Part shown: in pieces, positions 11,875 to 13,917 of the stretch | Position numbering within the stretch: position 1 is the first letter of the stretch | How the letters are laid out: every line of letters starts with the position of its first letter | Origin: Anaeromyxobacteraceae bacterium | GTDB lineage: Bacteria; Myxococcota; Myxococcia; Myxococcales; Anaeromyxobacteraceae | Reading direction: 5' to 3' | Assembly: GCA_049586815.1 (NCBI GenBank) | Contig: JBAVCR010000182.1 | Location: forward strand, 7,056-71,055 | DNA: 64,000 nt | Translations under genes and position numbers: made by a program | The notes under the pieces: generated by a model | What the model saw: the letters and a program-made list of their open reading frames with translations, nothing else | The model's database searches: none | Told to the model about the DNA's origin: nothing

Positions 11875-13917
11875 CTACGGCTGCGCCCCGCCCCCGCCGG
11901 CCCGCTCCTCCCGCCGTGCCAGCTCGAGGTCCGACTCCATCATGATGCGCACGAGCTCCGCAAAGCTCGTCCGGGGCTTCCACCCGAGCGCCTTCACCGC
12001 CTTGGACGGGTCGCCGAGCAGGTAATCCACCTCGGCGGGCCGGTAGTAGCGCGGGTCGATGTCGACGAAGTCCTGGTAGTCGAGCCCCACGTGCCCGAAG
12101 GCCCGTTCGCACAGTTCGCGGACCGAGTGGGCCTCGCCGGTGGCGACGACGTAGTCGTCCCCCTTCGGTTGCTGCACCATGAGCCACATGGCCTCGACGT
12201 AGTCCTTCGCGTAGCCCCAGTCGCGCTTCGCCTCCAAGTTGCCGAGGTAGAGCTTCTTCTGGAGCCCGAGCTTGATGCGCGAGGCCGCGCGCGTGACCTT
12301 GCGGGTCACGAAGGTCTCGCCGCGGCGCGGCGAGTTGTGGATCCACCCATCGCCGACGCCGGCATGGAACGTCCCGCTCTCGGTCGCGAGGTCGAAGAGC
12401 CACCCCCGGTGGTCGAGCCGGGTGGTCTTCAGGACCTCCGCCACGGGACGCCGGAGGTGGGCTCCCTTCGCGCCCTGGCGCTCGTCTTCCGGGACCGAGA
12501 GGTTGATCTGGTAATAGAGGCGTCCGTCGCGATCCTCGACCGAGAGGATCGCCCGCTGGCCGAGCGCCCGGCGTGCGAGCCACCAGAGCCCCGCCGCCAG
12601 GCACGCGGACGAGGTCTTGAAGGACTTGAACTCGCAGCGGGAGTTCCCGGCGCGGAGCCCGTCGGTCTCGTTGTAGCCGCGGAGGAAGGCGAGCTGCGCC
12701 TCGAGCGACGCGTTCAGGATCCGCGACGGGACCCGCTTGTCGCCGCTCTCGGTGTAGAGCTGCGAGCGCATCCACCGGCCCCAGGAGGAGCCGCCCGTGA
12801 GGTTCACGGCCTCGACCGGTCGATCCCCGAAGCCGGACCGGCCCGTCCAGCGGGTGGCGCCCCCGCCGGCCACGGCGCGCCACGCCTGCGCCGCCTCGTC
12901 GAGCACTGCGAGGTCGTTGCCGGTGAGCCGAACGTCGCCGTCCACGCTGATGTAGCCGTCGCCCGTCAGCGCCCCGAGGAGCCAGGCCTCGGCCTCGGTG
13001 ACCTGCGTCGCGTTCGTCGGCATGGGGCAATCGGCGAGGGCCAGGTGGTCGCCCGGCTGGATTCGCCCCGTGGGAACCTCCTCGTCACCAGCGAGGAAGG
13101 CGACGTGGTCGCTCGTGGCCGCGAAGAGCGCGCCACGCGCGGCCACCCGGACGACCTCCTTCTGGCCCCGGTTCCACGTGGCAGTCATGCAGGTCACGCG
13201 CGTGAAGCGATCGCGGTCCCAGACCTCGATCGGCTCCGCCGGCTCCGAGGTGTACCGCGTCCCGTGGCGGGGATCCGTCCGGTGCGGGACGATCTCCTCG
13301 ATGGGCACGATGTCGATGAGGCCGTTCTTGCGGACGATGACCGGGGTCTCGGCCGTGACGCACTCGTGGTTGAACAGGATCCCGTTCGACACGTGCATCC
13401 CGTAGGACTCGCGGTAGTTCACCGCGATCCAGTACGAGTACACCTTGGCGCAGCCGTATGGGCTGCGCGGGTAGAAGGGGGTCTGCTCGTTCTGCGGCGG
13501 CGGCGAGGCCCCGAACATCTCCGACGACGACGCCTGGTAGAGCCGGGTCGCGTCGAGCCCGGTGTCGCGCATGGCCTCGAGGAGGCGCACGCTGCCCAGC
13601 CCGGTGACCTCGCCGGTGTACTCCGGCACGTCGAACGACACGCGCACGTGGCTCTGCGCGCCCAGGTTGTAGATCTCGTCGGGCCGGACGTGGCGCAGGA
13701 TGGTGTTCAAGGACGACGCGTCGTTGAGGTCGCCGTAGTGGAGGAAGAGGCGGGTGCCGGGAAGGTGCGGGTCCCGATAGACGTGGTCGACGCGGCCGGT
13801 GTTGAAGGTGGAAGCCCGGCGGACGATGCCGTGAACCTCGTAGCCCTTCTCGAGGAGCAGCTCCGCGAGGTAGCTGCCGTCCTGCCCGGTGATGCCGGTG
13901 ATGAGCGCCTTCTTCAC
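11875..13917 (-). CDS. gmd: GDP-mannose 4,6-dehydratase precursor interrupted by an in-frame intein
   Basis: The GTG start at 13917 overlaps the fcl stop (GTGA). The N-extein is 185 aa ([14 protein letters not shown]..., [22 protein letters not shown]). The C-extein is 152 aa ([12 protein letters not shown]...). The two exteins join to give a normal-length 337-aa Gmd. A 343-aa insert lies between them. Confidence 0.9.
12334..13362 (-). mobile_element. Intein (343 codons) with a LAGLIDADG homing-endonuclease domain, inserted in gmd
   Basis: The insert starts with Cys (TGC at 13362-13360; block [14 protein letters not shown]). Block B is TSDH. The LAGLIDADG motifs are [11 protein letters not shown] (12952-12981) and [12 protein letters not shown]. 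Block F is [14 protein letters not shown]. Block G ends in HN (AAC at 12336-12334) and is followed by the Ser +1 of SPRRG. Confidence 0.85.

Follow-up and report, generated by a model that had tools for sequence, protein, structure and literature searches.

A probable mobile class-1 intein with a nested LAGLIDADG endonuclease in the GDP-mannose 4,6-dehydratase gene of an Anaeromyxobacteraceae bacterium

Results

The gmd gene and its insert

In the window analysed here, a 64,000-nucleotide stretch of contig JBAVCR010000182.1 from an Anaeromyxobacteraceae bacterium, the gene for GDP-mannose 4,6-dehydratase (gmd; product, Gmd) is interrupted by a 1029-bp segment that is very probably a mobile class-1 intein with a nested two-motif LAGLIDADG homing endonuclease. 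The gene lies on the minus strand, with a GTG start codon at 13917 and a TAG stop codon at 11875-11877. The insert is positioned in frame between ...FNHE and SPRRG... of Gmd (NHE↓SPRRG; here and below, an arrow marks a junction). The parts of the gene are as follows.

11875..13917, minus strand: gmd precursor open reading frame (ORF; N-extein, intein and C-extein), 680 sense codons plus the TAG stop codon
13363..13917, minus strand: N-extein, Gmd residues 1-185, the Rossmann part, ending in ...GILFNHE (from structure alignment)
12334..13362, minus strand: putative intein, Cys1 to His342-Asn343, 343 codons, precursor residues 186-528
11878..12333, minus strand: C-extein, residues 186-337 of spliced Gmd (529-680 of the precursor), beginning with Ser+1 of SPRRG (from structure alignment)
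13063..13362, minus strand: predicted HINT N-terminal lobe, intein amino acids 1-100, with Cys1 of block A (from TIGR01445, the structure model and conservation)
13105-13116, minus strand: block B, TSDH, intein amino acids 83-86, a Thr-x-x-His motif
12478..13002, minus strand: predicted LAGLIDADG homing-endonuclease domain, intein amino acids ~121-295 (from Pfam, Foldseek and conservation)
12952-12984, minus strand: LAGLIDADG motif 1 (LLGALTGDG), with an acidic residue and Gly at its end
12655-12687, minus strand: LAGLIDADG motif 2 (LRGYNETDG), with an acidic residue and Gly at its end
12334..12402, minus strand: predicted HINT C-terminal blocks F and G, ending in His-Asn and aligning to the C-terminus of the TliVMA intein

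Cys1 is encoded by TGC (13360-13362) and the terminal Asn, preceded by His, by AAC (12334-12336); the next codon, TCG (12331-12333), encodes Ser+1, and the junction reads WIHN↓S. The G+C content of the insert is host-like (71.7%, relative to 68.3% in the extein), as is that at third codon positions (GC3; 93.6% and 96.7%, respectively). The precursor is identical to GenBank protein MGA8891033.1 from an Anaeromyxobacteraceae metagenome-assembled genome (MAG), which is labelled 'GDP-mannose 4,6-dehydratase' with the intein unannotated. We dismissed antisense ORFs over the insert (for example 11803-14163, plus strand) as shadows of the high G+C content: GC3 is 94-97% in the minus-strand frame, which also accounts for all homology.

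The identity of the host gene was established by comparison of the gmd product with protein families. It matched TIGR01472 at equivalog level (519.5 bits; cutoff 415) in two stretches, one on either side of the insert, so the match cannot be due to chance; Pfam GDP_Man_Dehyd likewise matched in two stretches (6.5e-138). The N-extein bears SSSEMFG and YGCAK, the catalytic S/T-x-E and Y-x-x-x-K motifs of Gmd. Against solved Gmd structures, the spliced protein scored 1e-132. The N-extein aligned to residues 29-216 of Arabidopsis thaliana MUR1 (1n7g) and residues 2-187 of Escherichia coli Gmd (1db3), and the C-extein to residues 217-359 of MUR1. Since the MUR1 alignment stops at 216 and resumes at 217, the excision borders are exact to the residue. 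Without the insert, the gene encodes a 337-amino-acid protein that aligns without gaps to the solved structures.

A preliminary description of this DNA, made from its letters, had reported the 343-codon in-frame insert at 12334-13362 in a 680-codon gmd. These positions proved correct to the base, and all the motifs quoted there were found at the expected coordinates. Its statement that removal of the insert restores a colinear 337-amino-acid Gmd agrees both with the gapless MUR1 alignment and with the 1014-nt length of an uninterrupted allele described below.

Relation of the insert to known inteins

A word-indexed search of a 5.8-billion-protein collection with the insert alone returned 58 matches. 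All except one, hypothetical protein P0057 (no Pfam matches), carry Gmd domains; their named sources include Anaeromyxobacter (74% identity), Rhodothermales, Chloroflexota, Planctomycetota, Actinomycetota, Cyanobacteria and a Thermoplasmata archaeon. When 1.84 billion cluster representatives were searched exhaustively, 650 matched at E<=1e-3, 207 of them at E<=1e-10. Among the best 150 representatives, Gmd sequence flanked the match on at least one side in 81 and on both sides in 55, and the intein occupied about positions 180-530 of proteins of about 670-730 amino acids. Nine representatives without Gmd flanks were scanned. They comprised family B DNA polymerases (PolB), RecA, a P22-like portal protein, GT2/GT4 glycosyltransferases, a subtilase and P0140, which has no recognisable host domain; all nine had Pfam Intein_splicing and/or LAGLIDADG_3 at the matching region. 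Because its homology to inteins in PolB, RecA and other unrelated hosts is significant (1e-14 to 1e-20 for those in classical hosts), the insert is assigned, by sequence, directly to the intein superfamily. It also matched the intein-containing portions of DnaB and ribonucleotide reductase (RNR) whole-protein models.

We then compared a profile of 22 Gmd-borne intein copies (A1) with the PDB. The profile matched the TliVMA intein (7qsu) at 9.3e-22, with the alignment extending to the terminal hN, and also 7qss, PI-PkoII (2cw7; 4e-17), PhoVMA (7qst) and PI-SceI. TFIIB mini-inteins (5o9i, 5o9j) were matched over the N-terminal lobe (amino acids 2-123).

An AlphaFold2 model of the insert (mean pLDDT 93.6, pTM 0.92) consists of a beta-rich N-lobe (amino acids 7-97), a duplicated alpha/beta endonuclease core (~123-288) and a beta C-lobe (309-342). 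In Foldseek comparison of this model with the PDB, TliVMA ranked first (2.7e-21; TMq 0.67), followed by PhoVMA, PI-PkoII, PI-PfuI and PI-SceI. Lower matches were the free-standing LAGLIDADG enzymes I-SceI, I-DmoI and I-Tsp061I and the mini-inteins Pab PolII, NpuDnaB and Mtu RecA, with entries 2lcj, 7oec, 4o1r and 3ifj. As modelled, the insert has both the HINT fold of class-1 inteins and the duplicated alpha-beta-beta-alpha-beta-beta-alpha fold of LAGLIDADG enzymes.

We considered whether the insert could be a class-3 intein. That class requires a Trp-Cys-Thr set with Cys at position 4 of block F and lacks a nucleophile at position 1. Because the insert has Cys1, Asp at position 4 of block F and a terminal His-Asn followed by Ser, it belongs to class 1 instead.

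Conservation of splicing and nuclease residues

Fifty-two full-length Gmd-intein proteins, with inteins 23-55% identical to the window copy, were aligned. The positions conserved among them are exactly the catalytic ones. Residue 1 of the intein is Cys in 29 copies, Ser in 12 and Thr in 8. Block B His and the terminal Asn are present in all 52, block B Thr in 50, block F Asp in 48 and the penultimate His in 36; the +1 extein residue is Ser in 49 and Thr in 3. In the endonuclease part, the first LAGLIDADG acidic residue (Asp/Glu) is retained in 51 of the 52 and the second LAGLIDADG Asp in 50. The second Asp-Gly is followed by Leu-Arg in the window copy (DGLR) versus Leu-Lys (DGLK) in 47 of the 52.

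The Gmd motif split by the insert is itself near-invariant (N183 in 51/52, H184 in 50/52 and R532 in 52/52), and, judged from extended short-chain dehydrogenase/reductase (SDR) enzymes in general, it probably has a role in substrate binding. As the insertion splits this motif, the unspliced precursor is probably inactive.

Thr is an uncommon nucleophile at position 1 of inteins. The Thr1 subgroup of Gmd inteins (NHE↓T...) includes P0080, P0084, P0090, P0096, P0112, P0116, P0168 and P0201, and there are two viral examples (L086:1095-3053 and L087:4413-6647). Both viral copies have an extra segment of ~45 residues near the C-terminal lobe, which is helix-turn-helix-like (...GISRTFIRKIQNG...).

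Intein-less alleles

Employing the spliced extein as a query, we found that the closest relatives are all 332-342 amino acids long and therefore intein-less: P0223 at 97% identity, about 25 more at 90-94%, and that of Anaeromyxobacter diazotrophicus at 84%. The gene for P0223 is on L088, a contig of 152 kb in synteny with the window over rmlA-C-B-D, fcl, gmd, a gene for an HNH protein, wzi and dagK. The L088 gmd is 1014 nt long, equal to the window gmd minus the insert, and the two are 94.4% identical at the nucleotide level without a gap. Between the GAG and Ser codons, then, the two alleles differ by the clean gain or loss of 1029 bp.

Around the insertion point (window 12304-12363; L088:8526-8585), the two alleles differ at 5 synonymous positions within the 15 nt on the 3' side, which read AGC CCG CGT CGC GGA in L088 and TCG CCG CGC CGC GGC in the window, and at none of the 91 nt on the 5' side. 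About 0.84 differences per 15 nt would be expected (post-hoc Poisson P about 0.002). Of five close intein-less alleles (L088-L092), four have atypical codons at +1/+2 (AGC, AGT, Pro to Ser with AGG, and Pro to Glu), and intein-bearing alleles of the family have TCN-CCN in 8 of 8. Over the first three codons on the 3' side, where the changes are mostly synonymous or tolerated, L088 reads AGC-CCG-CGT, L089 AGT-CCA-CGT, L090 TCC-AGT-AGG and L091 TCG-GAG-CGC. In this small sample, the changes clustered at intein-less sites may confer target-site immunity to the endonuclease. Co-conversion was also considered: extein identity to L088 exceeds that of the flanking genes, but this is expected for a conserved enzyme, and we drew no conclusion from it.

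Selection and inheritance

The window gmd was compared with seven Anaeromyxobacteraceae alleles that carry 343-codon inteins (L004-L010). The ratio of nonsynonymous to synonymous divergence (dN/dS) was 0.10-0.28 for the intein, 0.11-0.25 for its HINT part, 0.07-0.30 for the endonuclease part and 0.08-0.28 for the extein. These ratios place the entire element, including the nuclease, under purifying selection, which would be expected of an intein that depends on splicing and, with less certainty, of one that continues to home.

Within the Anaeromyxobacteraceae, intein identity falls with extein identity (extein/intein 94/87, 93/87 and 82/75%), which fits some vertical co-inheritance. In every comparison there, dS of the intein exceeded that of the extein, by up to 3-fold (L010, 0.89 versus 0.30). 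Across phyla, the inteins are 50-60% identical and the exteins only 58-70%. The high intein dS could reflect either weaker constraint on codon usage or a partly independent (horizontal) history of the intein. Together, the 97%-identical intein-less allele, the excess intein dS and the cross-phylum inteins are suggestive, but only suggestive, of recurrent gain or loss and horizontal movement.

Distribution of gmd inteins and their annotation

One genome per GTDB species was scanned with a closer alignment (A2); the resulting count is a lower bound set by two peptide patterns. The same intein was found at the same gmd site in 92 or more genomes, each representing a species; these span more than 10 phyla, and the loci of 80 were examined. 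A single uninterrupted ORF with FNHE↓C (or S)...HN↓SPRRG was present in 78 of the 80. The hosts include Anaeromyxobacteraceae (74-87% identity) and many cyanobacteria, among them the cultured Synechocystis salina LEGE 00031 and Spirulina CS-785/01 as well as Laspinema, Phormidium and Thermosynechococcus. Chloroflexota, Gemmatimonadota, Rhodothermales, Acidobacteriota, Chthonomonadaceae, Planctomycetota and Desulfobacterota are also represented, in addition to one Saccharibacteria MAG and one Woesearchaeota MAG. Four IMG/VR viral contigs carry an intein-bearing gmd, and viruses are a plausible vehicle for spread of the intein.

Two loci are damaged. In L034 (4001-5030), from a MAG, a 1-base frameshift lies inside the endonuclease domain and may be an assembly error or real decay. 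In L066 (3956-4891), a premature stop codon lies inside the intein; L066 and L049 come from one Chthonomonadaceae MAG, in which L066 is the second intein-bearing gmd and seems to be decaying.

Some gmd genes contain two inteins: P0064 (1087 amino acids), P0072 (1043 amino acids) and L085:3279-6623, on a 96-kb viral contig. The second site, YQAS↓S (or C)...HN↓SSEMFG, lies directly before the catalytic S/T-x-E motif, and Pfam calls Intein_splicing there; Gmd therefore has at least two independent insertion sites. The human peptide that corresponds to this YQAS(T/S)SE segment, FYQASTSELYGK, has been called the active-site sequence (PMC8640046).

A paralogous SDR (~33-37% identity to the N-extein; P0043, P0087, P0106 and P0119) carries the same intein family at a homologous motif, FNH↓S...HN↓TGPRRG, with Thr at +1. 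Because the family and the motif are shared, these inteins may have passed from one paralogous host gene to another.

Gene calls for intein-bearing gmd often begin at a conserved internal Met, that of MTATWN (intein residue 59). Such calls give a 'Gmd' of about 430-440 amino acids, while about 700 bp of open frame, the whole N-extein among them, go unannotated. Examples are L001:1398-2124, L002:5215-6001 and L003:5296-6001, and proteins P0001, P0006, P0018, P0020, P0029 and P0036. The mis-annotation is systematic and reaches a RefSeq cyanobacterial genome (Laspinema palackyanum). Many database entries that begin with MTATWN cover 83% of the insert, as the C-terminal part of a naturally split intein might. 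We rejected a split intein because an open upstream frame codes for the N-extein; it is continuous in L001-L003 and in the 78 loci noted above, and the short entries are truncated gene calls.

The gmd neighbourhood

The genes around gmd form a polysaccharide locus (rmlA/C/B, wzi and export genes). Directly upstream of gmd is the following gene.

13914..14858, minus strand: fcl-like GDP-fucose synthase gene, overlapping gmd by 4 bases (GTGA)

The GTG start codon of gmd overlaps the stop codon of fcl in GTGA, an arrangement of translational coupling, and the fcl-gmd order is also present in L001 and L088. Within the window we found neither a second gmd nor further inteins; the sole match to the extein was RmlB, at 26% identity. 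We consider it a reasonable inference, for a genome of which the window is the visible part, that GDP-fucose supply of the locus depends on splicing.

Immediately downstream of gmd (10602-11822, minus strand) is a 406-amino-acid ORF with a C-terminal HNH nuclease motif (VDHVIPRARGG...NCRLLCRVHN). Since the intein-less, syntenic L088 has a homologous gene (9156-10223), the HNH gene is not tied to the presence of the intein. At other loci the same position holds toxin-antitoxin genes (PIN with HepT/MNT in L001, HicB in L089), so the spot downstream of gmd is variable among relatives.

Discussion

The preliminary description had called the insert a canonical class-1 LAGLIDADG intein. Homology, profile matches to the PDB, the structure model, residue conservation, the empty-site allele and purifying selection all bear this out. 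In the mechanism that we propose, gmd would be translated as a 680-amino-acid precursor, and Cys1 would undergo an N-S acyl shift at the Glu185-Cys1 bond. Trans-esterification would then move the N-extein to the side chain of Ser+1, cyclisation of Asn343 would free the intein, and an O-N shift would leave a normal peptide bond in a 337-amino-acid Gmd. Fcl, which is co-translated, would receive GDP-4-keto-6-deoxymannose from the spliced enzyme. Once released, the intein (or its endonuclease domain) would cleave gmd alleles that lack it at ...TTCAACCACGAG↓TCNCCNCG..., and repair would copy the intein into the cut allele (homing). In all likelihood this gmd allele splices; that its endonuclease is still active is only somewhat more probable than that it is not.

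Several observations weigh against the assignment to a mobile class-1 intein. The TIGR01445 intein_Nterm model matched intein amino acids 1-86 with 22.2 bits, below its cutoff of 24.5; Pfam Intein_splicing (PF14890) had no match on the insert; and phmmer of the single insert sequence against the PDB returned no intein, only one spurious match at 0.086. The link from the insert to solved inteins was made only by the family profile and the structure model. In addition, Arg in place of Lys after the second LAGLIDADG Asp-Gly could affect nuclease activity, and dS estimates are fragile at a GC3 of about 95%. The sole Pfam match on the insert, LAGLIDADG_3, was above its cutoff (25.8 bits; cutoff 22.5), whereas the splicing-domain models were silent or below threshold. 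The curated intein hidden Markov models missed the insert because the family is too diverged for them, as the family profile reaches solved inteins at 1e-21.

The most serious alternative is that the intein splices but is no longer mobile, its endonuclease being kept for structure or another role, and that it has become a vertical passenger in the Anaeromyxobacteraceae. The host-like composition, the fall of intein identity with extein identity within the family, the Lys-to-Arg change beside the second catalytic Asp and the clearly degenerate LAGLIDADG motifs of some relatives (for example Laspinema P0036) all agree with this. However, both catalytic Asp residues are retained, dN/dS of the endonuclease part (0.07-0.30) is no higher than that of the HINT part, intein-less alleles (92-97% extein identity) coexist with intein-bearing ones, and an intein dS up to 3-fold above that of the extein suggests partly separate histories. 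We regard an immobile passenger as possible, though on balance doubtful. The long residence proposed in the preliminary description is supported only in part. Composition and the parallel divergence of intein and extein speak for it; the existence of a 97%-identical intein-less allele, which makes presence of the intein polymorphic, speaks against it.

It is scarcely tenable that a subfamily of Gmd has the insert as a permanent accessory domain that is never excised. A homologous domain does occur at the same position in many orthologous Gmd proteins, an outcome that the preliminary description had named as telling against an intein. Yet in these orthologues every splicing residue is retained, and empty alleles are interspersed with them; the intein assignment therefore stands. 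At 23-55% identity, invariant or near-invariant positions are limited to the splicing and nuclease catalytic residues; the insert splits a near-invariant Gmd motif; it occurs patchily, and alleles that are nearly identical have exact empty sites; and both solved inteins and the inteins of unrelated hosts are its homologues. It is also very unlikely that the intein fails to splice and that this gmd is a relic, with another genomic gmd doing the work. Only 64 kb of the genome are visible, which leaves room for such a gene, and the relative L034 is frameshifted inside its intein. Against this, the 680-codon frame is intact with all splicing residues present, the extein dN/dS is 0.08-0.28, the start codon is translationally coupled to fcl, no second gmd lies within the 64 kb, and the single-base indel of L034, a MAG, may be an assembly error.

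Splicing might instead be conditional on redox state, temperature or substrate, which would make the intein a post-translational switch on GDP-fucose supply and polysaccharide synthesis. Insertion in a near-invariant Gmd motif, with a precursor that is probably inactive, would suit a switch, as would purifying selection on the intein in many lineages and the second, independent site in the YQAS(T/S)SE segment. But no extein Cys near the junction could form a trapping disulfide, and occupancy of conserved sites is generic for homing inteins, which makes a regulatory explanation unneeded; we consider such control improbable. Little more weight can be given to the broader proposal of an arms race between homing and target immunity at gmd and/or conditional splicing that gates GDP-fucose and exopolysaccharide synthesis, which is speculative. 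A mobile, canonical class-1 intein remains our preferred reading.

Inteins concentrate in replication, repair and nucleotide-metabolism proteins. A well-conserved, large intein family in a sugar-nucleotide dehydratase, present in over 10 bacterial phyla, in some archaea and on viral contigs, widens the known host range. The family is almost never annotated in public genomes, where pipelines label the genes plainly 'GDP-mannose 4,6-dehydratase'. With such labels, and with starts at the internal Met that drop the N-extein, the length, start and presence of Gmd are misreported. For protein engineering, the family is a source of new inteins with Cys1, Ser1 or Thr1 and a Ser+1 junction, and homing studies can draw on natural pairs of filled and empty alleles. 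These data are useful for intein catalogues and genome annotation, and perhaps for protein engineering; the understanding of how inteins work is unchanged.

The preliminary description had supposed that the site might be rare or undescribed. Neither part of that supposition survives: the same intein occupies the same site in the 92 or more species-representative genomes, and in most of the best 150 representatives it is flanked by Gmd (81), as given above; furthermore, gmd inteins of Thermosynechococcus were already noted in a comparative-genomics figure (Front Microbiol 2022, PMC9403480), with no junction, class, distribution or function. In the literature searched, no other paper links inteins with Gmd. 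The gmd site has thus been described already, although it is still essentially without characterisation, and it is much commoner than had been supposed. The Thermosynechococcus inteins share with the window copy the host gene and a full-length organisation with a homing-endonuclease domain; at loci L060-L062 they are 43-48% identical to it and have the identical FNHE↓C...HN↓SPRRG junction. They differ in belonging to Cyanobacteria rather than Myxococcota.

A precedent in sugar-nucleotide metabolism, outside replication proteins, is provided by the inteins in euryarchaeal UDP-glucose/GDP-mannose dehydrogenase listed in a survey of intein hosts (Novikova et al. 2016, PMC4760082). These are euryarchaeal only, and they differ from the gmd inteins in enzyme family and fold position; Gmd is unmentioned in the main text of the survey.

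The inteins of the archaeal V-ATPase A-subunit, TliVMA and PhoVMA (7qsu, 7qss and 7qst), are the best profile and fold matches. Like the gmd intein, they combine HINT with a nested two-motif LAGLIDADG domain and have Cys1 and a terminal His-Asn; unlike it, they are archaeal and reside at the P-loop site of an ATPase, and identity is about 16-21%. PI-SceI, PI-PfuI and PI-PkoII have the same bifunctional organisation and fold, and the mechanism proposed here is established for them. They are larger (454-537 amino acids), with extra DNA-recognition regions, and reside in VMA1, RNR and PolB. For them, both splicing and cleavage have been proven experimentally, whereas the gmd intein is known here from its sequence and a predicted model. 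Compared with these systems, the gmd intein is a canonical bifunctional intein, and its host gene is its sole unusual feature.

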